Source: Myxococcota bacterium (GTDB lineage Bacteria; Myxococcota; XYA12-FULL-58-9; JALHOP01). Taken from it: a stretch of DNA of 64,000 bases. A program made the translations under genes and the position numbers. The notes under the pieces were generated by a model. That model was not told where the DNA came from and ran no database searches. It saw only the letters and a program-made list of their open reading frames with translations. Every line of letters starts with the position of its first letter. Position 1 is the first letter of the stretch. The stretch covers positions 1 through 64,000 of the forward strand of contig JBGGMJ010000099.1 of assembly GCA_041288095.1 (NCBI GenBank), in the 5' to 3' direction. Positions 12,466 to 33,461 of this stretch are shown in pieces.

Positions 12466-12582
12466 TCGCCGAAACAGCACGTACGACGTAGGCAGCGGCG
12501 CACCCGCTGTGATACGTGCGGGCCCCAATTTTCATGTCCGAAAGCGCGCGCCGTAGAGGTGCGCCAAAGGCTCGTGACAACG

Positions 12583-14640
<2,058 letters not shown>

Positions 14641-14707
14641 GGGTTTCCCAGGTCCGCGAAAAGTCGTGCGGTGCCAGCGCTGCACTCGAATTCGTGGTGA
14701 CATGGCG

Positions 14708-14734
14708 GCAACACGCCGCGTGCCGACTCGATAC
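14708..14734 (+). promoter_or_regulatory. Putative alternative-sigma promoter, strong copy (GCAACA-N14-TCGATAC)
   Basis: Ends 11 nt before the ggt ATG; same motif and spacing as the copies at 19082-19108 and 33328-33354. Confidence 0.6.
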
Positions 14735-14745
14735 ACCCCCCCTGC

Positions 14746-16554
14746 ATGGCGCGTATCGACTCGCACGGTGATGGTGTTGTTGGGCAGGTAACCTCGAAGG
14801 CAGCCCGCGCGGTCGACGTTTCGACCTCGGGTGGGCCGGCGAAGCCGCCGATGCGGCGAGTTGGTTTCACCGCGACCGACGGCATGGAAGCGCCAAGGCT
14901 CTTCGAGATGGCGCCGACCATGGTGCACAAGCGCTCGGTCGTCTACGCGACCGGCGGCATGGTCGCGGCCTCGCACCCGCAGGCCGTGCAAATCGGCGTC
15001 GACATACTCAAGAAGGGTGGCTCGGCCATCGACGCGGCGCTCGCCACCAACATCGCTCTTGGAGTGATGGAGCCCGGCATGTGCGGCATGGGCGGCGACC
15101 TCTTCGCCATCGTCTGGGACAACAAGGCGAAGCGCCTCTACGGCTTGAATGCCTCAGGTCGCAGTCCGCTAAAGCTTACAGCCGATAAGGTACAGCCGGG
15201 TCCCGACGGTACTATCCCCATCGCCGGCCCCGCGTCGATGTCCGTTCCCGGCGCCGTCGATGGGTGGGCAAAGCTGCACCAGCGTTTCGGCAAGCTCGAC
15301 TGGGCCGAGCTCTTCAAGCCCGCTATCGCGGCCGCCGAAGACGGGGTTCCCGTGGCGCCGGTCGTGGCCAAGGAGTGGGATTGGCCGGGTTGGCTCCCCA
15401 AGGTGAAGGATCACCACGGTTTCGCCGAGACCTTCCTGCCGAACGGCAAGCTGCCGAAGCCCGGTCAGATCTTTCGCAATCCCGAGCTCGCGAAGTCCCT
15501 GCGTCTGGTTGCGGAAGGCGGTCGCGATGCCTTCTACAAAGGTCAGATCGCTCGCGACATCGTCGCGGTCGCAGGCAAAGTCTCCGGCTTCTTTTCGCTC
15601 GCCGACTTCGATCGCGAGCATGCCGAGTGGGTCGAGCCCGTCGGTAGCACCTTCGGCGGCACCACGGTGTGGCAGCTCCCGCCCAACTGTCAGGGCGTCG
15701 TCGCCTTGCAGATGCTCAACATCCTCGAGTGCTTCGACTTGAAGAGCATCGGCCGCGACTCGCCGCTCTACTGGCACATCCTCATCGAAGCGAAGAAGCT
15801 CGCCTTCGAAGATCGCGCGCGTCACTACGCCGATCCCGACTTCGCGAAGATCCCAATCGCCACGCTGGTCTCGAAGGAGTACGCGAAGAAGCAAGCCGCG
15901 CGCATCGATCTCGACAAGGCCGCCGACCGCTATGAGGGCGACCCTGTCCTCGATCGCGGAGACACGACGTACCTCTCCGTCGCCGATAAAGACGGCAACA
16001 TGGTGTCGCTCATCCAGAGCAACTTCATGCCGTTCGGCAGCGGCAACGTGGTGGGCGGGTTTGGCATCCAGAATCGCGGCGCGCTCTTCAACTTGAAGCC
16101 CGGCCACCCCAACTCACTCGTGCCCGGTAAGCGCCCCTTCAACACCATCATGCCTGGCTTCGTGACCAAGGATGGCAAGCCGCTGATGTCTTTCGGCGTC
16201 ATGGGCGGCAACATGCAGCCGCTCGGTCACATGCAGGTGCTCGTCAATCACCTCCTCTTCGGCGACGACATCCAGGTCGCGAGCGACCGGCCGCGTTTCC
16301 AGCACGAGGGGTCCTCCGAGCCGACCGGTCCCGAGATGAAGACCGGCGGCGTGCTCTTTCTCGAGCAGGGCGTGCCCGACTACATCCGCGAGGGTCTCGC
16401 GGCGCGCGGCCACAAGGTTCAACCCGCTGGCGGCTACTTCGGTGGCTGCCAGATCGTGAAGGCGACGCCCGACGGTTACGAAGGCGCGAGCGAGTCGCGC
16501 AAGGACGGCTTGGCGCTTGGCTACAACGTTCCCAAGCGCGACCGCGTGTCCTGA
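14746..16554 (+). CDS. ggt: Gamma-glutamyltransferase family (Ntn hydrolase) with a roughly 60-aa non-Sec N-terminal leader
   Basis: GMVAASHP, GGSAIDAA, GMGGDLF, SVPGAVDGW, catalytic Thr in GDTTYLS, PGKRP and GVMGG motifs. Confidence 0.93.
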   Translation: MARIDSHGDGVVGQVTSKAARAVDVSTSGGPAKPPMRRVGFTATDGMEAPRLFEMAPTMVHKRSVVYATGGMVAASHPQAVQIGVDILKKGGSAIDAALATNIALGVMEPGMCGMGGDLFAIVWDNKAKRLYGLNASGRSPLKLTADKVQPGPDGTIPIAGPASMSVPGAVDGWAKLHQRFGKLDWAELFKPAIAAAEDGVPVAPVVAKEWDWPGWLPKVKDHHGFAETFLPNGKLPKPGQIFRNPELAKSLRLVAEGGRDAFYKGQIARDIVAVAGKVSGFFSLADFDREHAEWVEPVGSTFGGTTVWQLPPNCQGVVALQMLNILECFDLKSIGRDSPLYWHILIEAKKLAFEDRARHYADPDFAKIPIATLVSKEYAKKQAARIDLDKAADRYEGDPVLDRGDTTYLSVADKDGNMVSLIQSNFMPFGSGNVVGGFGIQNRGALFNLKPGHPNSLVPGKRPFNTIMPGFVTKDGKPLMSFGVMGGNMQPLGHMQVLVNHLLFGDDIQVASDRPRFQHEGSSEPTGPEMKTGGVLFLEQGVPDYIREGLAARGHKVQPAGGYFGGCQIVKATPDGYEGASESRKDGLALGYNVPKRDRVS

Positions 16555-16576
16555 CATCACGTCGGGTTACACCTCG

Positions 16577-16604
16577 GCACCCGCGTTAACCACGCGACCG
16601 ATAT
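16577..16604 (+). promoter_or_regulatory. Degenerate copy of the alternative-sigma motif (GCACCC-N15-CCGATAT)
   Basis: Lies 32 nt upstream of the ATG at 16637. Confidence 0.4.
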
Positions 16605-16636
16605 TGCCCGCCTAACCGCCGCAATTGAGGTTCGTC

Positions 16637-17026
16637 ATGGAATCGTCGCGTACTCCTGCTTCTGCTCCCTCGGGTCCCGTCATCTGCCCTCGACCGATCA
16701 CGGTCGTCGTCGATGGCCAAAAAATCAACGGCACGACCGTCACGGTCGCGTTCGGCAACAAGCTGGTGGTCGAGCTGCCGAAACAGCCGGCCAACGGCTA
16801 CAAATGGGGCGTGAGCTCGGTGCCGCGCGAGCTTGGTCAGCCGACGGTTGAAAACTCCGGTGGCGACCGCAAGGCGGGCGGCAGCAAAGGCAGCACCACC
16901 TTCACGTGGGCGATCGGTGGTCCGCTCATTCAGGCGGGCGTGAGCTACGAGGTTACCATCGGCCTCAAGCGTCCTTGGGAAGCGAAGGCGGCCGAGACCA
17001 TCGTCTTCAAAGTCAAAGTCGCCTAG
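16637..17026 (+). CDS. Chagasin-like cysteine protease inhibitor (I42 family)
   Basis: LVVELPKQPANGYKW, GG...TFTW and KRPWE match the chagasin loop motifs NPxTGYxW, GxGG and RPWE. Confidence 0.75.
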   Translation: MESSRTPASAPSGPVICPRPITVVVDGQKINGTTVTVAFGNKLVVELPKQPANGYKWGVSSVPRELGQPTVENSGGDRKAGGSKGSTTFTWAIGGPLIQAGVSYEVTIGLKRPWEAKAAETIVFKVKVA

Positions 17027-17030
17027 GCGA

Positions 17031-17651
17031 TCAGCGGAACTGCGCGAGGTAGCTCTGCAGCTCGGTGAACGAGGTGATCGCCTTAGCGGACGGCGCCTCG
17101 ACGAGCGGGCGATTGTAGCCACGGCTCGAATCGAGCATGCCAGCGTAGATGCGACCATGCACGGCGAGGGTGTACGCGACCTCGTCGGCGTCCAAGCGCC
17201 AATGGCGTCTGACGTTGTCGATCTTCTCGGAGATCGGCACCGGCGCGATTGCGAAACCGATGCCGGCCTTCTTCGCGGCGTCGATTTGCCGCCGCATGGT
17301 CCGCACCTCGTCGAACGAGAGTTTACCGTAGGCCGCTTGAATCTCCGGGAGACTCTTCGCACGTGTGCGCCGGGAATCCGCGCTCTCGCCGTACGCGCGG
17401 CTGCTCTCCACGCCTTCGATGACTAGCGCGACACCGCTCGTGCCGATGAGAGCGCCGGCAACACCCGCCGCGAGGCAATAAGGCAGGGCGAGGCGCAAGA
17501 GCCGCTTCCCCTTGCTGGGACGCGCCTTCGGGGCGGCGACGGTCGCGGGAACGCGGTCGCTGCTATCGGCGACCATCTGGGGGACGCCAACGTCGAACGC
17601 CGTGGACGGCGGGTTGCCTTGGGCACGCGAAACCGTGCTGGTGCTCGTCAT
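17031..17651 (-). CDS. Hypothetical protein, paralog 1 of a tandem triplet (leader, TM helix, HGR domain)
   Basis: C-terminal LAVHGRIYAG...SAKAITSFTELQSYL is shared with the two upstream ORFs. Confidence 0.8.
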   Translation of the reverse strand: MTSTSTVSRAQGNPPSTAFDVGVPQMVADSSDRVPATVAAPKARPSKGKRLLRLALPYCLAAGVAGALIGTSGVALVIEGVESSRAYGESADSRRTRAKSLPEIQAAYGKLSFDEVRTMRRQIDAAKKAGIGFAIAPVPISEKIDNVRRHWRLDADEVAYTLAVHGRIYAGMLDSSRGYNRPLVEAPSAKAITSFTELQSYLAQFR

Positions 17652-18271
17652 CGTCCGACCTCAGCGAGATAGCGCTGGAGCTCGTCGATCGACGTGATTG
17701 CTTTCGCGGACGATTGCTCGATCACCGGGCCAGTGCGCACGATGCCGGCGTAGACGCGACCGTGCAACGCGAGGGTTCGCGCGATGGCCTCGGAGTCGAG
17801 GACCTTATACCGGTCCAGCTTTGCTTCGTCGGGCGGCGCCGATAACGGCAGCGGCTCGATGGCGAACATGATGTCGAGGTTTTTCCGGGCCGCGTCCGCC
17901 TGTTGCTTCATCGCCCGCATATCGCTGATCGAGACGCGTTCGTACGCCGAGCGCACCGCCGCCAGATGCGCGTCGCGTTCCGCCTTGGTCGCCTTGGCCG
18001 TCGCGACTTTGACCGCCTTCTCGCTCGGCGCCGAGGCGAGCACGCCGGCCTCGAGCGCGAGGGTGAAGCTACCGCCGAGGGCCGCGCAGGCGATGCCAGT
18101 GGCGATCCAGTAAGGACGGACGAGGCGTCGCAGGCGCTTGGAGACGCGCCGAGGACTGTTCACGACGACCGCTGGAACCTTGGCTTCGCTCACCGGCACG
18201 ACGGGCGACAGGTCCGACGCTAGCGACGACGTGTGGCTCTGCGTGCGCACGATCGGGCCTGGACCAGTCAT
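17648..18271 (-). CDS. Hypothetical protein, paralog 2 of the triplet
   Basis: LALHGRVYAG...SAKAITSIDELQRYL. Start reassigned to ATG 18271 (207 aa, matching paralog 1 and lying just after a CGATAA box). Confidence 0.78.
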   Translation of the reverse strand: MTGPGPIVRTQSHTSSLASDLSPVVPVSEAKVPAVVVNSPRRVSKRLRRLVRPYWIATGIACAALGGSFTLALEAGVLASAPSEKAVKVATAKATKAERDAHLAAVRSAYERVSISDMRAMKQQADAARKNLDIMFAIEPLPLSAPPDEAKLDRYKVLDSEAIARTLALHGRVYAGIVRTGPVIEQSSAKAITSIDELQRYLAEVGR

Positions 18272-18279
18272 GGCCCCAG

Positions 18280-18307
18280 TTATCGCGGGCGCCGACGAAC
18301 CGGTCAC
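18280..18307 (-). promoter_or_regulatory. Degenerate copy of the alternative-sigma motif (GTGACC-N15-GCGATAA)
   Basis: Ends 8 nt before ATG 18271; CGATAACT is identical to the box upstream of paralog 3. Confidence 0.4.
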
Positions 18308-18373
18308 ACATTCGTCAGTGCCGACGGGGCTTCCTGCTGTGGTCGCACGCACACGCGAGCGCGACCCGGCGCT

Positions 18374-19042
18374 CTAGCGAAACAGGTTCAAGTACGAGCG
18401 CAGCGCTTCGTACGAGATGATCGCTTCAGCGGAGCTGGCATCGACGACTTGATAGTTGCCTTGCGCGGGCGGCGGCTTCGGGATGCTGGTGAGCGAGCCC
18501 ACGTAAATGCGTCCATGGCGCGCGAGCGCACCGTCGACAGCGCCAGCGCTCAAACGCAGATGAGTCTCTGGCTGCGGCCCAGGCGGGGCCGGAAGCTCCA
18601 GCGGCTCGACGACGAAACCGTAGCCACTGTCTCTCGCGCGTTCTGCTAGCTCTCGGAGGCGGGTGACTTCCGCGGGCGGCAGCTGCGAGAGCCGATCGCG
18701 CAGCGCCGAAAGACGATCAGGATCATCGTGCGCGAGCTCGACTGGTGTCTCTTCGTGCTCGACGATATCCGCGTTCGCCTGCGAGCCCTTGCGACCGCCG
18801 GGGGCGAAAGCGGCGATGCGGCCGGTGTGCAGCAGCACCGCGATGCCGGCGTGAATCGCGGCGTGGGCCGGCGTGACCACGAATGGTGGCGGCAGAGGCG
18901 CGGAGCGGACGCGATCGAACGATCGCCGGCGCGCGGGTTTGACCGCGGGCGACGCATTTTCCTGCAGAGCCGCCGGAGCCGTCGCGGGAGCGATCGGAAA
19001 GGACACCGCAGCGGCTTTGCCGCCTACGCCTTCGACGCTCAT
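18374..19042 (-). CDS. Hypothetical protein, paralog 3 of the triplet
   Basis: LARHGRIYVG...SAEAIISYEALRSYL; leader MSVEGVGGKAAAVS. Confidence 0.8.
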   Translation of the reverse strand: MSVEGVGGKAAAVSFPIAPATAPAALQENASPAVKPARRRSFDRVRSAPLPPPFVVTPAHAAIHAGIAVLLHTGRIAAFAPGGRKGSQANADIVEHEETPVELAHDDPDRLSALRDRLSQLPPAEVTRLRELAERARDSGYGFVVEPLELPAPPGPQPETHLRLSAGAVDGALARHGRIYVGSLTSIPKPPPAQGNYQVVDASSAEAIISYEALRSYLNLFR

Positions 19043-19081
19043 CTCTGCACAGTTCCGAGGCTCTTCATTGAACTGCCGGAG

Positions 19082-19108
19082 TTATCGAGCCCGGGGGCCA
19101 CGAGTTGT
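19082..19108 (-). promoter_or_regulatory. Putative alternative-sigma promoter, strong copy (ACAACT-N14-TCGATAA)
   Basis: Lies 39 nt upstream of ATG 19042 at the head of the paralog triplet. Confidence 0.6.
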
Positions 19109-19207
19109 CTGCCGTGCCGTACGCGGTTTGTGTCACCTTGGCATTTTGCCAGGGAAATCAGGCCGTTTCACGGATACGAGCGGAAAAGACCTGACACTTT
19201 ATCAGGG

Positions 19208-19810
19208 TCAAAGGCCCGCCGGGCAGCCCTGGACGTGGTCGTCGACCATCCCCATGGCCTGCATGAAGGCGTAAGCGGTCGTCGGCCCGACGAAGCTGAA
19301 ACCGCGTTTCTTGAGCTCCTTGGACAAGCGCTTGGACTCCTCGCTCGTCGTGTTGTTGCGTAGCTCCTTCAAGGTCCAGCGCCGGCCGCGCGCCGCCGGC
19401 CTGAAGCTCCAGACGAAGGTGTCGAAGTCGCCCTGCTTGGGAAAGTGCTCGAGCAAGCGCCGCGCGTTGTTGATAGTCGACTCGATCTTACCGCGATGGC
19501 GGACGATGCCGGCGTCGCCCAGCAAGCGCTTGACGTCCCTCGCGCCGAACGCCGCCACCTTCTTGGGATCGAAGCCGGCGAAGGCTCCGCGGAAGTTGTC
19601 GCGTTTCTTGAGGATGGTGAACCACGAGAGGCCGGACTGAAAACCCTCGAGGCACAGCTTCTCGAACAGTCGTGTGTCGGAGTGCACGGCCGTGCCCCAC
19701 TCGTCGTCGTGGTAGCGCCGATAGATCGGGTCGTCCGAGCACCAGAAGCAGCGCACGACGCCGTCGTCGTGAAGCCGCAAGCCGTCCGCGAGTCGCGCTG
19801 GTTTGGCCAT
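19208..19810 (-). CDS. tag: DNA-3-methyladenine glycosylase I
   Basis: RCFWC, YHDDEWG, LEGFQSGLSW, IVRHRGKI, GFSFVGPTT and DDHVQGC motifs. Confidence 0.95.
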   Translation of the reverse strand: MAKPARLADGLRLHDDGVVRCFWCSDDPIYRRYHDDEWGTAVHSDTRLFEKLCLEGFQSGLSWFTILKKRDNFRGAFAGFDPKKVAAFGARDVKRLLGDAGIVRHRGKIESTINNARRLLEHFPKQGDFDTFVWSFRPAARGRRWTLKELRNNTTSEESKRLSKELKKRGFSFVGPTTAYAFMQAMGMVDDHVQGCPAGL

Positions 19811-19901
19811 TGGTGCCTTTTTACACGAATGTGCCTTCTACGTTACGGCCCTCCGTTGCGGGAGCTTGACCAAGGTGTTAGAGGCGGGGCGGCCTGAAAC
19901 T

Positions 19902-19973
19902 GGGCCCATAGCTCAGCGGTAGAGCCGTCGGCTCATAACCGATAGGTCCCAGGTTCGATCCCTGGTGGGCCCA
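19902..19973 (+). tRNA. tRNA with CAU anticodon, most likely tRNA-Ile2 (lysidine-modified)
   Basis: GGGCCCA TAGCTCAGCGGTAGAGC ... GTCGG CT CAT AA CCGAT ... GGTTCGATCC ... TGGGCCC-A. Paired G1-C72 excludes fMet. Confidence 0.92.
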
Positions 19974-19998
19974 TTCGACGTCCGGAGGGTTTCTCGGC

Positions 19999-20742
19999 GT
20001 GCTTCAGCAGATGCTCGACTTGTACGAAATTCAAAAGATCGATCTCGGTATCCGCGACGTGCAGAAACGTCTCGACGAGATTCCCAAAGACCTCCGCCGA
20101 CTCGAGTCCCAGACCGGCGACCTGAAGCACGAAGTCGACAAGACCCGTCTCGAGCGCGACGCGCTCCTTCGCGAGATCAAAACTCTCGAAGACAGCGTCG
20201 TGATGGAGAACCAGAAGCACAAGAAGTGGGAATCGCGCCTCGCCGAGATCCGCAACCAACGTGAGTACCTGGCACTCTCCCGCGAGATCGAGGGCGGCAA
20301 GAGGCAGAACCGCGAAGCCGAAGAGAAGGTGCAGGAGCTCAAGAAGCGCCAGGCCGAGCTCGAGAAGAAGCTCGGCGACATGCAGACGCAGGTGTCCTCG
20401 CAAGAAGGCGAAGCCACCAGCGAGCGCACCAAGGTCGACACCGACGTCAACGCGGTGAAGGAAAAGCTCACGAGCGAGACTCAGCGCCGCGACGAGCTGC
20501 TCCCCAAGATTCCGCGGCCGCTGCTCGCCAAGTACGACTCGATCCGGGCCAAGCGCTTGGGCATCGGCATCGTCCCGGTGATCGGTGGCTTGTGCCAGGG
20601 CTGCAACATGCGGATCCCGCCACAGCTCTTCAACATCCTGCAACGCGGCCAAACCGTCGAGCAGTGCCCCAGCTGCCAGCGCATCATCTTCTGGGACAAA
20701 CTCCTCGCCACCGGTGGCACCGCCGCCGCGCCGGCGAGCTAG
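19999..20742 (+). CDS. Coiled-coil protein with C-terminal C4 zinc ribbon (DUF164/CT398-like)
   Basis: LYEIQKID start, long coiled coil, CQGCNMRIPPQ...CPSCQRII. Confidence 0.92.
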   Translation: MLQQMLDLYEIQKIDLGIRDVQKRLDEIPKDLRRLESQTGDLKHEVDKTRLERDALLREIKTLEDSVVMENQKHKKWESRLAEIRNQREYLALSREIEGGKRQNREAEEKVQELKKRQAELEKKLGDMQTQVSSQEGEATSERTKVDTDVNAVKEKLTSETQRRDELLPKIPRPLLAKYDSIRAKRLGIGIVPVIGGLCQGCNMRIPPQLFNILQRGQTVEQCPSCQRIIFWDKLLATGGTAAAPAS

Positions 20743-20761
20743 CCAAAAAAGGCGACCCGCC

Positions 20762-21400
20762 ATGTCGTCACGCCGCCGCCGCGATCCGGATCCGCTCGAG
20801 CTCATCACTTTCATCGCTGATCACGAGTCGCTGACTCTGTCGCGTGACGAGTTCTCGGGTGTGACCGAAGAGCGGCTGCGCTCGATCTTGCGGGCTTTCG
20901 TGGCGGAAGTCACCGGCGTTCCGCCAAAGCGGACGAACCTGGCGGCGGCCACCGTGGCGGCTAAGAACGAGCCCAAGAAGGCGGCGAACCGCGTCGTCCT
21001 CTTCACCGACGGCGCCTCGCGCGGCAATCCCGGCCCAGCCGGCGCTGGCTGGGTGATCACGGACGAGTCCGGCGAGACGCTGGGCAAAGGCGGAGCCTTC
21101 CTCGGCCGCCGCACCAACAACGAAGCCGAATACGAAGCGGTGATCCGCGGACTGCACGCCTGCCTCGAGACCGGCGCCAACGAGGTCTATCTGCGCAGCG
21201 ACAGCGAGCTGCTCGTGAAGCAGATCAACGGCACCTACCGCGTCAAAGAAGAACGTTTGCAGGCGCTCTATCACCAGGCGCGGGAGAAGCTGCAGAAGTT
21301 CCGCCGCTTCGACGTGAAGCATGTACCGCGCGAGCAAAACTCCGCGGCCGATGCTCAGGCGAACCAGGCCATCGACCAGGGCCCGTCGATCGCGGTCTAA
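20762..21400 (+). CDS. rnhA: Ribonuclease HI with an N-terminal extension
   Basis: FTDGASRGNPG, TNNEAEY, SDSELL and HVPREQNSAAD; all four catalytic acidic residues are present. Confidence 0.93.
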   Translation: MSSRRRRDPDPLELITFIADHESLTLSRDEFSGVTEERLRSILRAFVAEVTGVPPKRTNLAAATVAAKNEPKKAANRVVLFTDGASRGNPGPAGAGWVITDESGETLGKGGAFLGRRTNNEAEYEAVIRGLHACLETGANEVYLRSDSELLVKQINGTYRVKEERLQALYHQAREKLQKFRRFDVKHVPREQNSAADAQANQAIDQGPSIAV

Positions 21401-22320: not shown

Positions 22321-22395
22321 GATGCACACAGGATCATTGCATTGGCCACATGTGAAGCGCGGGCGTAGGTTTCTCTCGGACAAAAGGAGAACCCC

Positions 22396-23250: not shown

Positions 23251-23254
23251 CGGC

Positions 23255-24781
23255 TCACTTCGACAGCGCTGGCCAGGAGACCTGGGCTTCGAGAGGCAGG
23301 TCCAGGACGAGACTGGCGGAACCGCCGGACTCGACCGACTCCGCCTTCGCGTTGATGCCGATCTTGCCCGGTCGCACGGTGAGCTTGTTGCCGCCGAGAT
23401 CGAGCTGGCCGCCCTGGACTTTGACGTCGATCGAGCCGTCAGCGCCTCGTGCGACGATGCCTGTCTTGCCGACGGCGAGCTCCGCCAACTTGAAAGTGGC
23501 GCTCGACGGGTTGCCCAAGGCGAGAGTGAAGCGCGGACTCGCCGCGGCGGCGTCGTTCAAGCCGAGGGTTGCCTCGACGTTGTTGGCCGTAACGCTGAGC
23601 GAGCCGTCCTTCGCGAAGGCGATCTTGAGCTCGGAGGAGACATCGGCGCTGGTCTTGGCGTCGAGCGATAGCGAGTCACCGACGAACACCGAGAGCTGAC
23701 CGGCGATGGCGCGGCAGATCTGCAAGTCGCCGGCGTCGACGACCAGGCGTTGATCGCGATAGGCGATGGTCATGCCGTTGGCCGCGATAGCGTTTTCGGT
23801 CGGCTTCAAGGCTATGGTGGCGGCGATCGAGGCGTCGAGCTTGCCGGACGTCTTGCCGGTGAGGGCGCCACTGACGTCACGCGCGAGCGCGCCCGCGAGC
23901 TTCAAGGTGCCGCGGCCTGCGGGTGATTGGATCTCGGCGCCGTCGGTGCCGATCTTGACGGTCTCGGCCGCGCCGTTGAGCTCGAGCTTGAAGTCGGCCT
24001 TTTCGACCATGCCGCCGAGCGTCGCGATGAGCTGACGTGGGTCCATCGTCGGCAGCTTGGGGAGGCTCGAGGGTTTGCCGCCACCGAAGAAGCGGTTGAG
24101 ATGGAGATCATAGCGAGGCAACACAGCCGTCGGAATGGCGTTCTCGAGAGGGCTCTCGCCGAAGATCGGCTTCTTCAAAATGCCGTACGGCTGCAGCTGG
24201 CCGGCGGCGTCGATCGCGAGACGTTTTATCTTCACGCCGACGGCACCGCTGACGAAGCTCCCGACGAGTCCGCCACCCAGCAAGAGCCCGGGATTGAGCA
24301 CTTCGAGAGGCTTGCTGAAGTCGATGCTGACGTCACAGAGCAACAAGCCCTTCGACGTCGGCTTGAGCTTGGCGCTGACCGTCGCGATCGTGCCCGGGGA
24401 CACGCGGAGCTGAATTGGCTCGTCCTTGCCGATATCCAAGGAGACGGTACCCGCACGCAGCGGCACGGTCGCCGCGAGCTTGCCGCCGCTGACGCTGTGG
24501 TGCGCCATCTCGCAGAGACTGACGGCGTCGACAGTGACGAATGCCGACTTCAACGATTCTTTCACCGTGCTCGGGTGGAGGGCCGTGGTGCTGGGAGCGA
24601 CGCCGCGTTCTTCGGCGGCGAAGCGAGCGAGCTCGGGACCGGGTGCAGGGGGGTCGGGTCGGATGGCGCGTTTCGCGCGTGCGGCGCCTTTCTCGGGTTG
24701 CGACTGCTCGCCGACGGTCGTGGCGGCGGAAGCGGAAGCGGGGTTCGCAAGGCGAGAGAGCTCCGAATTTCGCATCGACAT
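23255..24781 (-). CDS. Hypothetical beta-strand-rich protein with a disordered N-terminal leader
   Basis: 508-aa ORF with host-like codon usage; about 70 aa of low-complexity leader, then extended beta strands. May start at ATG 24775. Confidence 0.72.
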   Translation of the reverse strand: MSMRNSELSRLANPASASAATTVGEQSQPEKGAARAKRAIRPDPPAPGPELARFAAEERGVAPSTTALHPSTVKESLKSAFVTVDAVSLCEMAHHSVSGGKLAATVPLRAGTVSLDIGKDEPIQLRVSPGTIATVSAKLKPTSKGLLLCDVSIDFSKPLEVLNPGLLLGGGLVGSFVSGAVGVKIKRLAIDAAGQLQPYGILKKPIFGESPLENAIPTAVLPRYDLHLNRFFGGGKPSSLPKLPTMDPRQLIATLGGMVEKADFKLELNGAAETVKIGTDGAEIQSPAGRGTLKLAGALARDVSGALTGKTSGKLDASIAATIALKPTENAIAANGMTIAYRDQRLVVDAGDLQICRAIAGQLSVFVGDSLSLDAKTSADVSSELKIAFAKDGSLSVTANNVEATLGLNDAAAASPRFTLALGNPSSATFKLAELAVGKTGIVARGADGSIDVKVQGGQLDLGGNKLTVRPGKIGINAKAESVESGGSASLVLDLPLEAQVSWPALSK

Positions 24782-24784
24782 CTT

Positions 24785-24812
24785 TTATCGGTGCCGAGCG
24801 GTCGCCTGGCGC
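24785..24812 (-). promoter_or_regulatory. Degenerate copy of the alternative-sigma motif (GCGCCA-N15-CCGATAA)
   Basis: Lies in the 44-nt gap immediately upstream of the 24781/24775 starts. Confidence 0.4.
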
Positions 24813-24825
24813 TTGAAAGTCGAGC

Positions 24826-26508: not shown

Positions 26509-26648
26509 TGAAGGCGGCATCATAACACGCCGCACCCACATTGGGGAGTGTAGCCGCCATAGCGTCTCAAACCTCGCATGGCGCGTCCCTCGAAACCGGG
26601 CTAAACCGACGTCTGCAGCTCAAAAGGACCCCGTAACCAGGATTGCTC

Positions 26649-27599
26649 ATGCGGCTATCTGCGATCGTCTCTGCGCTCCTTCTCACGCTTGCCGTCAACG
26701 CCCACGCCCGACCCGCGAAGGAGAAGCGGAAGACCGCCGAACGCGGCGCGCAGGCGGAAGAAAAAGGCGGTGGCGAGGAGGCTGCCGCTGACAACAAGCC
26801 GTTCGTGCCGCCACTCCCCGGCGTCAAGTGGGTCATGGGCCCCGGCAAGGGTGACCTGGGCAACGCCGCCATCGAAGTGCCCGCGGGCTTCGCCTTCACC
26901 GGCCGCGAAGGCACCAAGGCGTTTCTCGAGGCCACCGAGAACCCAGTCGGCACCACCGAACGCGGTACGCTTTGGCGCATTCCGCCGCAGGGCAGCACCA
27001 ACTCGTGGTTCGTGATCTTCGAGTACGAAGACAGCGGCCACATCAAGGACGACGACAAGGACGACATCGACGCCGACGCGCTGCTCTCGAGCCTTCAGGA
27101 AGGCACGGAGGCCTCGAACGAAGAGCGCCGTCAGCGTGGCTGGTCGACCATCAAGGTCACCGGCTGGCACGTGAAGCCGCAGTATGACGAGGCCTCGCAC
27201 AACGTCGAGTGGGCGACCAAGGCCGTCGACGAGCAGACCAACAGCATGAGCATCAACCACAACGTCCGCATCCTCGGACGTACGGGTGTCACCAGCGCCG
27301 TTCTGGTTGCCGGTGAAGACGAGCTCGCCAGCGCCACGCCTGAGTTCAAGAAGACGCTTGCCGGCTTCAACTACAACGCCGGCGACAAGTACGGTGACTA
27401 CAAGCAGGGCGACAAGCTCGCCGCCTACGGCATCGCCGGCCTCGTCCTCGGTGGCGCGGTGGCGGTCGCCGCGAAGTCGGGTCTTCTCGGCAAGCTGATC
27501 AAGCCGATCATCCTCGGCATCGCGGCCATTGGCGCCGGCATCGCCAAGTTGTTCAAGCGCGGCGGTGGCACCAAGGCAGAGCCGCCGAAGCAGGCCTGA
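26649..27599 (+). CDS. DUF2167-family membrane-anchored protein
   Basis: Signal peptide; SGHIKDDD, GW...PQYD, RILGRTG and GDKLAAYGIAGLVLGG..AAKSG; C-terminal TM. Confidence 0.85.
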   Translation: MRLSAIVSALLLTLAVNAHARPAKEKRKTAERGAQAEEKGGGEEAAADNKPFVPPLPGVKWVMGPGKGDLGNAAIEVPAGFAFTGREGTKAFLEATENPVGTTERGTLWRIPPQGSTNSWFVIFEYEDSGHIKDDDKDDIDADALLSSLQEGTEASNEERRQRGWSTIKVTGWHVKPQYDEASHNVEWATKAVDEQTNSMSINHNVRILGRTGVTSAVLVAGEDELASATPEFKKTLAGFNYNAGDKYGDYKQGDKLAAYGIAGLVLGGAVAVAAKSGLLGKLIKPIILGIAAIGAGIAKLFKRGGGTKAEPPKQA

Positions 27600-28671
27600 T
27601 ATCGACACTCAGTTTCTCCAGCTCGCTGCCGTAGCGGTTCTCCTCTACGTCATCGAGCTGGCCGTCTACTTGCCGCCCGGCCGCGTCGGCTTCGTGCTAC
27701 GCGGTCGGAGTGTGCGCCTCATTCGGGGCCTGGGCTTCAAGAGCCCATTTCCCTGGGGTGCGTTCTACGCCGTCGACGACTTCTATCTCGAGCTGGGGGC
27801 GACAGGCGCCTTGCTCTCACGCCCCTCGCGTGACGGCCGCGCGCACCCCGTCTATCTCGACTACGCGGTCATCAAGGACGTGACGGTTCGTGAGACGAAG
27901 CTCTTCGTCGACGGCAAGGAAGTGTTCAGGGCTCCGTCCGCTAAAGCGGCTGAGCGCGTCAAGCACGACCTCGATGCCATACGCGCGCTGCCCGAGAAGA
28001 AGCGCGCGGACGCCGTGAAGAAGCTCATCGCCGGGCAGATCGATGCGGACAAGGCGGTCGAGATCCGTAAGACCGACGACAAGACGTTGGTGACCCTTCG
28101 CGGCTTCGGAGTCCTCTTGCTGCTCCTGGTCGCCGGCGTCATTGGCTACCTCTTGATGGGGCGCACCGAGCGCTTGACCTCGATTGGCCTGGGAGCGCTG
28201 GCGCTCACGGTCTTCGCCATTGGCAAGTTCATCTCCGCGCACGCAAAGCTCTGGCCTCGCGAGCGCGCGCAGCGTTGGACGCGCGCCTTCACGTACATTT
28301 ACCCCCTCGCTCTGGCGAAGAGCTCGGACGTCTGCACGCACGACCGGATGTCCGGCTTGCACGTGCTCGCGCCGATGCGTGCTTTTACGACGCCGGCGGA
28401 GCAGGGTCGCATGATCGAAGCCATGCTCGCCGATGCCAAGGCGGCGGACACCTCGCTCGACAACGACAACGCGGACGTGAAGCGCACCCGCGCCGAGGTC
28501 CATGCGACGCTGATGGGGGTGCTCTCCACCATTGCTCCCGCTCCGCAAAAGAAGACGGCGGAAAACGATGACGGCGTGGTCGTGCGTTGCCCGCGTTGCG
28601 GCGCCGGCTATACGCGGCAAGTCTCGGAGTGTTTCGACTGCGGAGCGGCGATCGAGCAGCAGGCTGGCTGA
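27529..28671 (+). CDS. Hypothetical membrane protein with a C-terminal zinc ribbon (start uncertain)
   Basis: Three hydrophobic helices and CPRC...CFDC near the C-terminus. No ATG or GTG before the first TM helix. Confidence 0.7.
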   Translation: MAPASPSCSSAAVAPRQSRRSRPDIDTQFLQLAAVAVLLYVIELAVYLPPGRVGFVLRGRSVRLIRGLGFKSPFPWGAFYAVDDFYLELGATGALLSRPSRDGRAHPVYLDYAVIKDVTVRETKLFVDGKEVFRAPSAKAAERVKHDLDAIRALPEKKRADAVKKLIAGQIDADKAVEIRKTDDKTLVTLRGFGVLLLLLVAGVIGYLLMGRTERLTSIGLGALALTVFAIGKFISAHAKLWPRERAQRWTRAFTYIYPLALAKSSDVCTHDRMSGLHVLAPMRAFTTPAEQGRMIEAMLADAKAADTSLDNDNADVKRTRAEVHATLMGVLSTIAPAPQKKTAENDDGVVVRCPRCGAGYTRQVSECFDCGAAIEQQAG

Positions 28672-28826
28672 GTGCGTGTGCGCCCGTCGCTCGGGGGCCG
28701 TGGACAACACTACGTGTGGCCTCGCCAACGCACGACATCGTGTCAGTCTCCAAGTATCGCGCTCTTGTGCGCTGCGACGGATAGTGGCGCGGGTCATGCA
28801 TCGCGCTTGGCAACGAGGAGGCACGC

Positions 28827-29207
28827 ATGTCGCACGGTGGGAAATTCACGATGCTCGAGGCCATGGGGAGCCCGCGTTTCGACGCCCGGCTGGGTGATGC
28901 CGTGGCTGCGTCTCCGGCCGTGTCTCCGGCGGTCGTGCGTGAGACCTTGAAGCAGGTCGAGACCGCCCGCGACGAGATGGCAACGGAGATCGTCGCGTAC
29001 AGCGCGGCGCTCGCCGATGCCGCGGCCCTACGGAGCGAGGCGATCGTGCTTGGCCCGCTTGCTTGGGCGCGTGGTCGCGTCCATCTGTCCTCGACCCTCG
29101 ACGAAAATGTCGGCGCGCGTGAGACGGAGCTCCGCGTAACGCGCGATGCGCACACGTCACTCACGCAATCGTATCAGCGCCTGCGCGATCGACTGAAAGA
29201 GCCGTAG
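28827..29207 (+). CDS. Hypothetical alpha-helical protein
   Basis: GAGGAGG RBS before the ATG; coiled-coil character. Confidence 0.65.
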   Translation: MSHGGKFTMLEAMGSPRFDARLGDAVAASPAVSPAVVRETLKQVETARDEMATEIVAYSAALADAAALRSEAIVLGPLAWARGRVHLSSTLDENVGARETELRVTRDAHTSLTQSYQRLRDRLKEP

Positions 29208-29212
29208 TCAGG

Positions 29213-29998
29213 CTATCCCGCCGGCGAGCCCGCCGACGCCTGCGTGACATTCGCCGCCTTGCGCTTGCGCGCGACGATCCGCGCGCCCAGGATGCCGAGC
29301 TCCCAGAAGAGCACGAGTGGCACCGCCATCAAGCACATGCTGACCGGCGATGGGTCCGCGGTGACCACGCCGCCGATGATGAACGACGCGACCACCCAAT
29401 ACTTGCGCCACTTGGCGAAGCTCGCGGCCGTGACGAGACCCGCCGCCGCGAGGATCCACATGACCAGCGGCAGCTCGAAGACGAAGCCGAAGGCAAGCAG
29501 CATGTGGAACACCAAGTTGAAGTAGGTCTCGACCGAGTACGTGTTCTCGACGCCGACCGGCACCATCGCGGTCAGGTATTTGAACATGTTCGGGATCACC
29601 ACGTAGTAGCCAAAGGCGCCGCCGCCGACGAACGACAGCGTACCCATGATGATGAAGGGCGCGATCCAACGCTTCTCGTGGGAGTAGAGCCCGGGGGCGA
29701 CGAACAGCCACAGCTGCGCGAGCATCCATGGCGCCGTGCCGAAGACGGCCGCTAAAATGGACAGCTTCATGTACGTGAAGACCATCTCGAGCGGCGACAG
29801 CACCACGAGCTTTTGCCCGCCGGTCGCGACGTCGAGTGGCTGGCGCATGATGTTGAAGAGCTCGGGCGCATAGCTGAAGGCCGCGAACGTCGCGACCAAC
29901 AGCACGATCAAGACGTACATGAGGCGCTTGCGCAGCTCGGTCAGGTGCTCGACCAGGCTCATGCGGGATTGGGCGAAGGGGTCGTGCTGGTCGGTCAT
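29213..29998 (-). CDS. tatC: Twin-arginine translocase subunit TatC
   Basis: SLVEHLTELRKRL, QLWLFVAPGLY..EK and FGFVFELP motifs. Confidence 0.96.
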   Translation of the reverse strand: MTDQHDPFAQSRMSLVEHLTELRKRLMYVLIVLLVATFAAFSYAPELFNIMRQPLDVATGGQKLVVLSPLEMVFTYMKLSILAAVFGTAPWMLAQLWLFVAPGLYSHEKRWIAPFIIMGTLSFVGGGAFGYYVVIPNMFKYLTAMVPVGVENTYSVETYFNLVFHMLLAFGFVFELPLVMWILAAAGLVTAASFAKWRKYWVVASFIIGGVVTADPSPVSMCLMAVPLVLFWELGILGARIVARKRKAANVTQASAGSPAG

Positions 29999-30342
29999 GG
30001 CTTGGGCTCGGAGGTGACGGCCGCGCCCGGCTCGGGTGCCGGCGTTGTCGTTTCTGGTGCCACCGGCGAGCCGTCCGCCTGCGGCAGCGGCTCATTCGCG
30101 GCGACGGGCAAGTGCTCGGGCGGCGCCATGCCGATGGCGGCCTTGCGCTCGCGCTCCCGCTCTTCACGCTCTGCCTCCCGCGCCACCTCGTCGAAGGTGT
30201 GCTGCAGGTCGCTCGCGTGACGCCGGAACTCGCGCAGGCCCTTGCCGACTTGGCGGGCGACCTGGGGTAGCTTGGTCGGCCCAAGCACCACGAGGGCGAC
30301 GACCAGGATGATGATGACTTCGCCGACGCCTAAGCCGAGCAT
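29995..30342 (-). CDS. tatB: Twin-arginine translocase subunit TatB (TatA/B family)
   Basis: GEVIIILVVALVVLGPTKLPQVARQVGKGLREFR; 4-nt overlap with tatC. Confidence 0.88.
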   Translation of the reverse strand: MLGLGVGEVIIILVVALVVLGPTKLPQVARQVGKGLREFRRHASDLQHTFDEVAREAEREERERERKAAIGMAPPEHLPVAANEPLPQADGSPVAPETTTPAPEPGAAVTSEPKP

Positions 30343-30424
30343 TCCCCTAAGAAAACACGAAGGCGCCGATAAGCCAACGCTGTTGGACCTACCGGCGCCT
30401 TTGGGTGTGCTCAGACCTTATTGA

Positions 30425-32074
30425 TTAGAGGCCAGTGCCGCTGCCGCTGCGCGAGGGCGAGCTGCTGGACCGGCTCGGCGAGCTGTAGCTCGGCGAGGGG
30501 CTGCTGTACGACGGCGAGCGGCTCGGTGAGCTGTAGCTCGGCGAGCTGCCGAGGCCAGTGCCCGAACCGGAGCTGCGCGGCGGCGTATACGACGGCGGCG
30601 GCGTGTACGACGGCGTGCTGCGCGGCGGCGTGTACGACGGCGACGGCGAGCTGCCGAGACCCGTACCCGAGCCCGAGCTACGCGGCGGGGTATAGGTCGG
30701 CGAGGTCGACGGCGACGGCGACGAGCCTAGGCCCGTGCCACTGCCGCTGCTGCGGGGAGGAAGCCCCGAGCCGGGGCTGGTGCCACCGGGGAGACCGGTG
30801 CCCGAGCCTGGCAGGCCCGTGCCTGAACCCGTCCCCGAGCGGGGCGGCAGGCCCGTACCCGAACCCGGGAGACCCGTGCCCGAGCCCGGAAGACCGGTGC
30901 CCGAGCGGGGCGGCAGACCCGTGCCACTGCCGGGAAGGCCAGTGCCCGAACCCGAACCCGGCAAGCCGGTGCCCGAGCCTGGACGGCGGGGATACGGATC
31001 GAGACCGGTGCCACTGCGACCATCCGGATAGCGGGGGGTCGGGAAGTAGCGGTGGTCACGGTAGTAGTCGGGATAATACTGGTAGTAGTAATCGTGGTAG
31101 CGCGGCTGCGTGAGGCACTGCAGGGTCGAGAGCTGATCGTTCAGCCGCTCCATGCTGTACTGCTGCGCGAGCTGCGTGCGCAGGATCTGCGCCGCCTGGC
31201 TTCCCGGGGGGAAGGTCGACAGGATGGTCTCGAGACGCGCCATGCTCTGCATGCGCTGGCTCTCGAGGTACTGCTGCATGCTCTGGCGCTGCAGGATGTC
31301 GTAGAAGCTGTCGCAGCCGTACATGTTCATCGGCGACCAGAACGACAGGCCGCGCATGAAGATGCCGCGTTGCACGAGCTCCATGAGAACGGCGTCCGCG
31401 AAAGCGGGGCTGTTCGTGGCGTTGAGCGACGACACCGCCAAAGCGATGGTCGACTCGTTGCCCCACGGATACATGCGCTCGAGCACCTGGGCCGCCGCTT
31501 GGGGGCTGCTCATGCCGGAGAGGCTCTGGCGCAGCACCATGTTGAGAGCGCTGCTCTCGTAGCCGCTGGTGCGGTCCATGACCTGCTGCAAGAGGCCCAT
31601 GCTGGCCAAGCGCTCGACGAACGCGCCGCGGATCTCCGGCGGGTAGCGATTGAGGATCGCCAGCGTCTCTTGCTCTTCGGCTTGGTCGAAGCAGAAGAGG
31701 CCGAGGAACGAGCAGCTGTTGAGCATCTGGCTGATGCGGGCCGCGTCGTTCGCCATCTGCGCCTGCAACGACGGGTCGACGATGCGTGAGGCGACGCTTG
31801 GGTCCCAGTACTGGGTGTACTGCGCCAGGGTGACTTCCGGCGCCGCGGTCTCGCGGTTCACGCCAGGGGTAAAGCGCGGCGTCGCGAGGCCGGCAGTCGT
31901 GCTGCGCGGCTGCGCCGTGACGGTGGTGCGCGAGGCGGCATCGGGCTCCGGCGCGCGGAGCGCTTCGGGCGCTGCGGGACGAACCTCGGTGCTCGGAGCC
32001 GCGTCGGTGTTGGCCACCACGCTGCTCGTGCTCGAAACTTGGGGATTTGGCTCGAGAGCCGTCACTGCTGCCAT
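30425..32074 (-). CDS. Hypothetical protein: disordered leader, helical core, Tyr-rich spacer, tail with 13 SGTGL repeats ending at the stop codon
   Basis: AAGGAG RBS about 7 nt before ATG 32074; C-terminus ...SRSGSGTGL*. Confidence 0.82.
   Translation of the reverse strand: MAAVTALEPNPQVSSTSSVVANTDAAPSTEVRPAAPEALRAPEPDAASRTTVTAQPRSTTAGLATPRFTPGVNRETAAPEVTLAQYTQYWDPSVASRIVDPSLQAQMANDAARISQMLNSCSFLGLFCFDQAEEQETLAILNRYPPEIRGAFVERLASMGLLQQVMDRTSGYESSALNMVLRQSLSGMSSPQAAAQVLERMYPWGNESTIALAVSSLNATNSPAFADAVLMELVQRGIFMRGLSFWSPMNMYGCDSFYDILQRQSMQQYLESQRMQSMARLETILSTFPPGSQAAQILRTQLAQQYSMERLNDQLSTLQCLTQPRYHDYYYQYYPDYYRDHRYFPTPRYPDGRSGTGLDPYPRRPGSGTGLPGSGSGTGLPGSGTGLPPRSGTGLPGSGTGLPGSGTGLPPRSGTGSGTGLPGSGTGLPGGTSPGSGLPPRSSGSGTGLGSSPSPSTSPTYTPPRSSGSGTGLGSSPSPSYTPPRSTPSYTPPPSYTPPRSSGSGTGLGSSPSYSSPSRSPSYSSPSPSYSSPSRSSSSPSRSGSGTGL
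30428..31015 (-). repeat. SGTGL peptide-repeat tail (13 copies)
   Basis: Counted in the translation; codons vary between copies. Confidence 0.9.
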
Positions 32075-32089
32075 GATCATTCTCCTTGA

Positions 32090-32117
32090 GTATCTAAATC
32101 GTCGATCGTTGAGTTGT
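32090..32117 (-). promoter_or_regulatory. Degenerate copy of the alternative-sigma motif (ACAACT-N15-TAGATAC)
   Basis: Shares the 11-mer GCAGACAACTC with the copy upstream of 19042. Confidence 0.45.
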
Positions 32118-32203
32118 CTGCTATAGCGGACACTTGCAAGAACGACCGACCGGTGCGAGCGAACTTGCGCGCGCGCGTCACCGGTCAGTCACTCGTTGCT
32201 TGG

Positions 32204-32614
32204 TTACTTCGCGAGGACCTGCCACCAGGGCAGGCCATTGACGTCGTCGGTCTCGCGTTCGACGGCAGGTGCGTTCGCGACGGCGAGAAATTTCTTCGCG
32301 GCCGTGCGACGCATGTCTTCGCTGTTTCTCACCGGTACACCGCGTCCGGGCGCGGGACCGATGATCGCGAACGTATTCATCAGGTCCACTGCAGCGGACT
32401 TACACTGCAATTGTTTGTGCACGTAGAGAGCGCAGCGCATCATCTCCTGCGCGGCCGCGTGAGCGACCTCGTAGGTGGTAAAGCTCTGGAAGAGCTTGAC
32501 GATGGCTTGGCGGCCCTCCGCCGTGACGACGTAGCCTTTGGCTTCGTCTTTTCGCAGTGCGCCCAAGACTACGTCAGCGACGCGTTGCTCGAGCTCGGTG
32601 GGTGGTGGAAGCAT
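32204..32614 (-). CDS. Hypothetical small helical protein
   Basis: 136-aa ORF with host-like codon usage, co-oriented with its neighbours. Confidence 0.65.
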   Translation of the reverse strand: MLPPPTELEQRVADVVLGALRKDEAKGYVVTAEGRQAIVKLFQSFTTYEVAHAAAQEMMRCALYVHKQLQCKSAAVDLMNTFAIIGPAPGRGVPVRNSEDMRRTAAKKFLAVANAPAVERETDDVNGLPWWQVLAK

Positions 32615-32660
32615 TGAAGGTATATCCTGTGGAATTGATGCAGTTCAGTAGCGCTACGAA

Positions 32661-33263
32661 CTAGTCCCAGAACGAGCGGATGGCCTTCTGAGCTTCGGGG
32701 CTCAGATTGCCCGGCTGATCCAGGATCGCGCGGAACTGCTGCTGCTCGGCGTGCGTCAGCTCGCTGCGGCGATCGTTGAACTCTTGCTTCAGAGCGCCAC
32801 GCTCTTCGCCGTCGATGGCGAGGGCGTTGCCCCAGAAGTCGCGCTCGACTTCGCCGTAGCGGTTGAAGAAGCTCGCCTCGACGCCGCGCGCGAAGCCCAG
32901 CACCATGACGGCGCGAGCGTGCGACCCAGCGACCCAGCTAGCGGTCTGGCCAACGGGGCTGGTGAAGCGATCGAGGTAGGGCAAGAGGACGTCACGCGCG
33001 TAGCCCGTGAGGTTCGTCTTCAGCGTCTCGGTGAAGTCATGAACGTCGACCGGGTTCGCGATTGCCGAGCGGCGCTCGTGATACTCCGCGACCATACGGC
33101 CGCTCTCGTCGCCGTTGACGCCGCCGACTTCGCTGCCGCGCACGAACGCAAGCATGCCGACCGCTTGAGCTTTTCCGAGGGTAACTGGATCTGACATTTC
33201 AAACACTCCATCGCATGTCGCAAGCTCTTGTGAGCTTGCAACCTGGGTAACGCCGCGAACCAC
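32661..33263 (-). CDS. Hypothetical protein (alternative start ATG 33197 with a GGAG RBS)
   Basis: ORF with good codon usage; no recognisable motif. Confidence 0.68.
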   Translation of the reverse strand: MVRGVTQVASSQELATCDGVFEMSDPVTLGKAQAVGMLAFVRGSEVGGVNGDESGRMVAEYHERRSAIANPVDVHDFTETLKTNLTGYARDVLLPYLDRFTSPVGQTASWVAGSHARAVMVLGFARGVEASFFNRYGEVERDFWGNALAIDGEERGALKQEFNDRRSELTHAEQQQFRAILDQPGNLSPEAQKAIRSFWD

Positions 33264-33327
33264 TTGATGCGGCTATGTTGGTGGGTTGCGACTCACCCAC
33301 TTGGGGAGCCAGCAACGAGTATCGGGA

Positions 33328-33354
33328 GTATCGAGGGTGCCGCTGTTACGTTGC
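33328..33354 (-). promoter_or_regulatory. Putative alternative-sigma promoter, strong copy (GCAACG-N14-TCGATAC)
   Basis: Upstream of the 33263-32204 genes; a second CCGATAC follows 9 nt later. Confidence 0.6.
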
Positions 33355-33461
33355 TGAAAATGATGCGACGCGTCTGTCAGGCGCTGGCGGCACGTCGATT
33401 CACGAAACGGCGTGACCTCGTCGCGCGACATTAGCCCATTCCCTAAAATTCGGAGCCTTAG

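Follow-up and report, generated by a model that had tools for sequence, protein, structure and literature searches.

A two-box sequence element was examined in 64,000 nucleotides (nt) of DNA from a Myxococcota bacterium, positions 1 to 64,000 of contig JBGGMJ010000099.1 (the window), which make up nearly all of the 64,862 bp contig. The element precedes ggt (gamma-glutamyltranspeptidase), the gene of a chagasin-type (I42) peptidase inhibitor, two of three orphan paralogs (paralogs 1 and 2), a beta-rich orphan and a gene for a hypothetical protein of 178 amino acids (aa) (Table 1). Judged from sequence and conservation, it is a real, conserved and asymmetric promoter-like element, as expected for the promoters of an alternative sigma factor. 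The boxes are assigned with moderate confidence to the promoter class of a sigma-28 (FliA/WhiG/SigD)-family factor, the −35 preference of which would have shifted to GCAA(C). Such a mechanism is not new in kind; it is a variant of the known FliA-type regulon. A preliminary description, made from the letters alone, had listed eight copies of the element, and all eight stretches are present at their positions and on their strands.

The occurrence of the motif was evaluated over the whole window. The pattern RCAAC-N15-TCGATAH had exactly three matches in the 64 kb, the same three exact copies that had been reported, and all three were intergenic, in sense orientation and upstream of a gene. The mean number of matches in dinucleotide-preserving shuffles was 0.02 and none of 100 shuffles reached three, a contrast that is inflated because the pattern was written after the sites were seen. 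The looser pattern CAAC-N{14,17}-CGATA gave four matches against 0.76 expected, and one of 100 shuffles reached four. CGATA was present at six of the eight listed sites. Moreover, it occurred in 6 of 29 sense upstream regions, all six belonging to genes that had been singled out beforehand, whereas the other 23, among them those of recA, dnaG, rpoD, tag, both tRNAs, the RNase P RNA and tatA, lacked it; the claim that no housekeeping gene carries the motif thus held in the window. By a weight matrix built from seven of the sites, and circular for those sites, the exact sites scored 18–20 bits, a value that did not occur in 30 shuffles, and the remaining 11 matches of at least 12 bits all lay within coding regions. 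Neither box repeats the other, directly or in inverted form, and from the sequence they are about two helical turns apart, as are the contacts of sigma factors. Three other CGATA words were noted: one at 19940 within tRNA-Met, one at 30367 within a terminator-like hairpin after SGTGL1 (one of two genes for proteins with SGTGL-repeat tails), and one at 28755–28759 on the minus strand. The last lies in the gap between a zinc-ribbon gene and a 126-aa gene, has no gene ahead and no −35-like partner, and is probably due to chance.

The evidence that carries the finding is the comparison with a relative, contig CAZAER010000008.1 of a metagenome-assembled genome (L001, 65% guanine plus cytosine (G+C), 21.8 kb). 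It was the sole close relative among the 14 loci that a genome scan with ggt as query gave, its GGT was 86% identical, and it was colinear with window positions 6275–25093 except for two extra genes. At the ggt site, the −35 box was identical at 6/6 positions and the −10 box at 7/7, compared with 4/14 for the spacer, and GACATGGCGGCAACA and CTCGATACACCCCC were identical. The corresponding values at the paralog-1 site were 5/6, 6/7 and 2/14, and GAGACAAC and CGATAACTCCGGCAGTT were identical. For both sites together, 24 of 26 box positions were kept, in contrast to 6 of 28 spacer positions, with the spacer length of 14 nt unchanged; 155 of 256 four-fold degenerate sites of ggt (60.5%) were identical. 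Constraint on the boxes and on their distance, with an unconstrained spacer, is at the sequence level the signature of core promoter elements. CAAC-N16-CGATA occurred three times in the relative and once in the 13 unrelated loci of the same scan (~231 kb, 29–56% identity, other phyla), which serve as a crude frequency control only.

CGATA was kept at all five comparable sites, that is, at the I42, paralog-2 and beta-orphan sites besides the two exact ones. The I42 site in the relative was GCACCC-N14-CCGATAT, with GGCACCC and ACCGATATTGCC kept and the spacer one base shorter. The paralog-2 site was GCGACC-N14-TCGATAA, with CGATAAC kept and followed by a conserved GCCATGAC. Both therefore had the canonical N14 spacing in the relative. 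From the three exact matches, the ggt and paralog-1 boxes kept as against their spacers, and the CGATA kept at the other three sites, six of the eight listed sites look real. By score alone, the degenerate copies at 16577, 18280 and 24785 were no better than chance; all three keep CGATA in the relative. The two sites proposed before the SGTGL genes were not upheld. The SGTGL1 site was not counted because it has no CGA core and because a start 7–9 nt past its box would cut into the ribosome site; the closest relative of SGTGL1 starts at the second ATG (32074), with AAGGAG as the ribosome site ahead. The SGTGL2 site fell outside the 40 best weight-matrix matches, though its letters are present.

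In the format used for sigma-28 promoters, the exact sites read GCAA-N15-CTCGATA(A/C), equally GCAA-N15-CTCGATAC, and the variants have N16. The central CGA of the sigma-28 −10 consensus GCCGATAA is present in them, and the distance from the four-base −35 core to the eight-base −10 element is the 15–16 nt of this family. The earlier statement that the downstream box resembles the sigma-28 −10 element was borne out, and the spacing also fits the published sigma-28-family consensus sequences. The −35 box of the best sites shares the AA core only and is one base from TCAA. Enterobacterial class 3 flagellar promoters read TAAA-N15-GCCGATAA; the present sites have the same spacing when written GCAA-N15-nnCGATAa, and differ in the first two −35 bases and in targets that are not flagellar or chemotaxis genes. 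To our knowledge, leaderless starts are not a feature of class 3 flagellar promoters.

By analogy, the FliA attack-phase regulon of Bdellovibrio bacteriovorus is the closest precedent. In the portions of the sources consulted, TTAAG-N16-CCGATA is given for 92 of 140 attack-phase promoters (PMC3627812), and some two thirds of the attack-phase genes, many of them uncharacterised, are attributed to FliA (PMC3627812, PMC12622784). The (C/T)CGATA −10 box, the two-box layout, with spacers that differ by no more than one base, and the reach beyond flagella to many scattered uncharacterised genes are common to both. In contrast to Bdellovibrio, the −35 box is GCAAC and not TTAAG, the G+C content is about 66% across the whole window, and neither fliA nor flagellar genes were seen in the window. 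For Actinomycetota, the consulted text of PMC12871210 gives T(A/C)AA-N16-GCCGATAA and CTCA-N16-17-GCCGAACT for sigma-28/WhiG, with the central CGA most conserved and a −35 box that differs between clades. As far as that text goes, high G+C, an invariant central CGA, a variable −35 box (TCAA there, GCAA here) and non-flagellar regulons are shared with the present sites, whereas the phylum differs and the present sites do not retain the GC ahead of CGA. In Pseudomonas aeruginosa, the consulted part of PMC12784957 places TCTAAAG at −36 to −30 and GCCGATAA at −15 to −8 in the sigma-28 open complex.

In the proposed mechanism, the two boxes would be the −35 and −10 elements for RNA polymerase with an alternative sigma factor, region 4 of which would contact GCAAC, while regions 2 and 3 would contact nnCGATA(A/C), 15–16 nt downstream. 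Transcription would start about 7–9 nt past the box. We infer that one factor would co-express at least six transcription units, mostly lineage-restricted, fast-evolving and scattered among housekeeping genes. A large regulon is suggested because six sites occur within 20 kb.

For three genes (ggt, paralog 2 and the beta-rich orphan), the predicted transcription start would coincide with the start codon or directly precede it. The gap from box to start codon was 7 nt for ggt in the relative, 8 nt for paralog 2 in both genomes, 9 nt for the second ATG of the beta-rich orphan in both genomes and 11 nt for ggt in the window, and none of these starts had a ribosome-binding site. In the consulted descriptions, the class 3 −10 box ends at −8, so that transcription would begin at the ATG of genes that open 7–9 nt past the box. 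Because a −10 box ending at −8 would place the start on or next to the ATG, and because ribosome sites are lacking, the mRNAs of these three genes are probably leaderless or near-leaderless. Short leaders are probably general in the organism since the GTG of dnaG is likewise preceded, at 9 nt, by a −10-like TAGTAT; the recA–dnaG intergenic region (10505–10569), in which TTGAGA...TAGTAT ends at this distance, is nearly identical in the relative.

In both genomes the ggt N-terminus MxRIDS is kept in frame. An inverted repeat over the ggt start, TCGATAC...GTATCGA, was considered as an operator and rejected: its arms are 18 nt apart in one genome and 14 nt in the other, and its second arm encodes the conserved residues R-I-D. 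Inside the 5′ end of ggt, on the minus strand, ACAACA-N14-GTCGATAC (14753–14780) scored 15.3 bits; the box in it and the ggt −10 box form an inverted pair. Its counterpart in the relative would face the extra orphan gene, but the −35 box is not kept there; this element is a relic divergent promoter or else a coincidence. The paralog-2 ORF (open reading frame) of the relative opens at an ATG 8 nt past the box, so the window gene starts at the corresponding ATG, 18271. The paralog-2 site is therefore upstream of the gene and not inside it, the start not being that of the upstream GVG-type ORF. Paralogs 2 and 3 overlap by ATGA and are likely to be on one transcript. The database copy of the beta-rich orphan has 506 aa and opens at the second ATG, and the Atlas record likewise starts at residue 3.

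The I42, paralog-1 and 178-aa genes would keep leaders. The I42 leader would be about 25 nt long with a GAGG ribosome site, and the gene starts with ATG in the window and GTG in the relative. A 9-codon ORF stands ahead of paralog 1, and its stop overlaps the paralog-1 ATG (ATGA); in the relative the ORF has the same length and overlap and a different peptide. It may serve translational coupling from a near-leaderless mini-ORF. A block conserved in the relative contains the palindrome TGGCAAAATGCCA (~19139–19151, minus strand), which precedes the paralog-1 −35 box by 30 nt and may be the site of a dimeric regulator. Because homologues of the first gene of the hypothetical pair are 178 aa long (beginning MSDP or MADP), this gene starts at ATG 33197; the leader would therefore be about 120 nt. 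It folds into three hairpins (−51.9 kcal/mol, z −3.95), and none of 200 shuffles folded as well. The leader had no match in Rfam; it might have a regulatory role or represent a small RNA.

Several results weigh against the sigma-28 assignment or narrow its basis. The −35 boxes (GCAAC, ACAAC, GCACC, GTGAC, GCGCC) have no exact match among the published TAAA, T(A/C)AA, TTAAG and TCTAAAG, and the preliminary description had already pointed out the departure from TAAA. At the sites, CT, AC or CG takes the place of the consensus GC ahead of CGA. Within the window the motif does not stand before late flagellar or chemotaxis genes: the MCP gene and the FecR-domain gene upstream of it are without a CGATA-type site. 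No sigma-28, FlgM, flagellar or type III export gene was found in the window, the readable DNA being 64 kb plus the 21.8 kb of the relative. The footprint comes from one relative and covers the sites up to 25093; the third exact site and the two SGTGL sites fall outside it. At the beta-orphan site it is not discriminating because conservation extends there over the entire short intergenic region and not over the box alone. The label of the relative, Bdellovibrionales, the order of B. bacteriovorus, favours the assignment, but it is the label of a database record ('uncultured Bdellovibrionales bacterium'). In an unbiased count of 5-mers (1,024 words in the 29 upstream regions, 2,442 nt), CGATA ranked seventh: it occurred 7 times, with 1.22 expected (Poisson p 2.7e-4), and this excess fails correction for 1,024 words. 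Furthermore, the degenerate sites scored 12.8–15.9 bits, which is in the noise range, as shuffles averaged 6.6 matches of at least 12 bits and 1.4 of at least 14.

The main rival, considered unlikely, is that an ECF (group 4) sigma factor, and not one of the sigma-28 family, reads this promoter class. The usual ECF architecture is AAC-N16-CG, ECF −10 boxes are usually CGT and shorter, and HrpL, an ECF sigma factor, is the textbook case of one box before scattered effector genes. The present sites resemble the HrpL 'hrp box' in the AAC of the −35 box (4 of the 8 listed sites), the CG that opens the −10 box, the 16-nt gap, which fits about equally well, and the placement of one box before dispersed genes without known function. 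Ser/Thr kinases and two FecR-domain proteins in the window also match ECF-rich lineages. However, the −10 box is CGATA(A/C), six bases long, with CGA and not CGT at all CG-containing sites, and CGA-TA stands in place of CGT or CCAC. No ECF sigma gene, anti-sigma pair or type III secretion gene was found in the window. The two FecR-domain genes (37914–39074 and 41140–43104) have no motif upstream, so the autoregulation typical of sigma/anti-sigma pairs is not seen there, and six sites per 20 kb are dense for a typical small ECF regulon. Published ECF promoters have spacers of 16–18 bp, according to the part of PMC7776599 consulted.

A shared regulator other than a sigma factor is distinctly improbable. 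Under this explanation, CGATA alone would be −10-like and GCAAC an activator site, or the whole element would be an operator. The greater variability of the −35 box agrees with it, as do further conserved blocks upstream of the paralog-1 site, the palindrome included; the asymmetry of the boxes, their spacing, which is constant to one base while the spacer sequence turns over, and their place directly before start codons suit core promoter elements instead. A variant housekeeping promoter of leaderless genes, read by RpoD, is regarded as slightly less probable still. The −10-like TAGTAT before dnaG shows that short leaders extend beyond the motif genes, and a conserved TGTGATAC precedes rpoD. 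Nevertheless, the housekeeping candidates (TTGACG-N16-TAAAAC before rpoD and TTGAGA...TAGTAT before dnaG) carry −35 boxes of TTGAC type and −10 boxes of TAnnnT type, neither of which the motif has, and CGATA is absent from the 23 other upstream regions. A sigma-70 consensus scan of 14400–34300 gave one site (1.6 in shuffles), at none of the motif genes. Chance resemblance combined with ordinary conservation between two close genomes was already disfavoured and is the least credible explanation. The pattern was defined after the fact, and the degenerate sites score like noise. Chance matches do occur, since the third CAAC-N16-CGATA of the relative (19982–20006, minus strand), which the window lacks, sits within the NmrA gene. 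Against chance stand the boxes, kept far better than the spacers and the four-fold sites, and the intergenic, sense placement of all three exact sites. The sigma-28-family factor remains the preferred reader of the motif.

The products of the genes behind the sites were explored by family and structure searches. Seven of the ten proteins had no match in Pfam, and nine proteins (ggt left out) had none in NCBIfam. The paralog family comprised 7 clusters among 5.8 billion (BLASTP 37% identity, E 3e-31, for the paralog 2/3 entry), and the database search gave 4 clusters for the beta-rich orphan and 5 for the 178-aa protein; the SGTGL1 N-domain had 6 representatives among 1.84 billion. Since clusters and representatives are so few, the earlier name 'orphan' is fair for these lineage-restricted products, but not for ggt and the I42 inhibitor, which belong to ordinary families. 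Paralog 3 was 60% identical to its orthologue in the relative, compared with 86% for GGT; on this sequence comparison the lineage-restricted products evolve fast. In the models, the paralogs have a disordered N-terminus, one predicted membrane helix and then a well-folded C-terminal domain. The paralog-3 model had C-terminal blocks with a predicted local distance difference test score (pLDDT) of 81–94 from about residue 100, with one loop block at 68, and no PDB match at E ≤ 0.001. The Atlas model of the beta-rich orphan had a pLDDT of 0.40 and uninformative look-alikes.

The description of the products as effector-like or secreted cargo was not borne out. GGT and the I42 inhibitor are not effector-like, no Sec-type signal peptide was seen by eye among the products, and the family and fold searches gave nothing that pointed to an effector, secreted cargo or secretion. 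The only secretion-system domains on the Pfam map of the window were TatA/TatC, and the effector and type III export reading is an analogy. In the GGT of the relative (10001–10200), a stretch of 19 residues carries a lipobox-like LAGLGC that follows a hydrophobic run; in the window (14746–14900, plus strand) this stretch is deleted in frame, so that window GGT has no visible signal peptide. SGTGL1 and SGTGL2 are otherwise unrelated, have Ser/Pro/Gly-rich tails with 13 and 5 SGTGL copies, respectively, and both terminate exactly in SGTGL before the stop codon. They had no family match in Pfam or NCBIfam; in the Atlas, SGTGL2 was no more than EzrA-like helical (TM 0.54), which is uninformative. 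A 31%-identical relative of SGTGL1 (P0019) ends in RSGTGL, and two other distant relatives have different short repeats, also at the C-terminus. From these sequences, the tail looks like a C-terminal recognition or sorting tag; its terminal T-G-L fits a class I PDZ ligand.

Table 1. Motif sites, genes and neighbouring features of the window.
Feature	Coordinates	Strand	Remark
Promoter motif GCAACA-N14-TCGATAC before ggt	14708..14734	+	exact match; footprint in relative
ggt, gamma-glutamyltranspeptidase	14746..16554	+	Pfam PF01019, E 3.8e-145
Variant motif GCACCC-N15-CCGATAT before I42 inhibitor	16577..16604	+	
Chagasin-family (I42) peptidase inhibitor	16637..17026	+	Pfam PF09394, E 1.3e-6
Paralog 3	17031-17651	-	
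Paralog 2	17648-18271	-	
Variant motif GTGACC-N15-GCGATAA before paralog 2	18280..18307	-	
Paralog 1	18374-19042	-	
9-codon upstream ORF of paralog 1	19039-19068	-	
Promoter motif ACAACT-N14-TCGATAA before paralog 1	19082..19108	-	exact match; footprint in relative
Beta-rich orphan	23255..24775	-	start probably second ATG, 9 nt past box
Variant motif GCGCCA-N15-CCGATAA before beta-rich orphan	24785..24812	-	
SGTGL1	30425-32074	-	
Candidate ACAACT-N15-TAGATAC before SGTGL1	32090..32117	-	not supported
136-aa hypothetical protein	32204-32614	-	
178-aa hypothetical protein	32661-33197	-	
Structured leader	33198-33322	-	
Promoter motif GCAACG-N14-TCGATAC	33328..33354	-	exact match; second CGATAC 9 nt downstream
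Very weak candidate GAAACG-N15-GCGACAT before SGTGL2	33404..33431	+	not supported
SGTGL2	33462-36026	+	
MCP	36146-37897		only chemotaxis gene in window

The gene map of the window was GC3-guided and combined with Pfam. The mapped order was recA, dnaG, rpoD, ggt, the I42 inhibitor, the three paralogs, tag and tRNA-Met, followed by a CT398-like gene, RNase H, a LysR/NmrA pair and the beta-rich orphan of 506 aa. Beyond it lie a sulfotransferase, the RNase P RNA, DUF2167, TatA/TatC, the two SGTGL-tail proteins and two small hypothetical genes, and farther along an MCP, proteins of the Ser/Thr kinase, FecR-domain and PEGA types, an ABC/FtsX pair, DeaD, alpha-2-macroglobulin and LigD. On the Pfam map, rpoD (12559–14640) was the sole sigma gene. 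The RNase P RNA (26080–26506, minus strand, 280 bits) covers the first 45 codons of the long sulfotransferase ORF; the start of this gene must therefore be downstream, at or below about 26070. At 39100–39128 (minus strand), TTCAACA...CCTGATAAA was found 25–30 nt before the FecR-domain gene that heads the FecR–MCP pair. This element scored 11.2 bits and has no CGA; it resembles a sigma-70-type promoter more closely than it does the motif. The relative carries two orphan paralogs of 480 aa that are lacking from the window, one between rpoD and ggt (8462–9904, minus strand) and one between the paralog-1 promoter and tag (14512–15957, minus strand), which represents orphan-gene turnover adjoining motif sites. 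The two are 33% identical to each other and belong to no Pfam family; the extra stretches of 1.5 kb were considered as insertion sequences, and this was rejected because they encode these paralogs.

No published description of the GCAAC/CGATA motif was found in the literature, where the letter matches listed, judged from titles and abstracts, were apparent primer coincidences, which does not prove its absence; among the papers listed on leaderless genes, sigma factors and promoters of Bdellovibrionota, none dealt with this lineage. Regarding the biology of the organism, a wider proposal is put forward tentatively and is itself rather doubtful. In this high-G+C lineage filed under Bdellovibrionales, a sigma-28-family factor with a −35 preference retuned to GCAAC might act as the global switch of fast-evolving, lineage-restricted genes, many of them leaderless, with SGTGL-tagged proteins among its targets, as a counterpart of the attack-phase programme of Bdellovibrio. 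If the sigma-28 reading holds, one short motif would predict which unknown genes of an uncultured lineage switch on together. The role of the flagellar sigma factor as a general life-style regulator, as in Bdellovibrio, Streptomyces and Chlamydia, would extend to a group with a changed −35 preference, and the sites would offer natural sequence pairs for studying specificity change in sigma-28 region 4.

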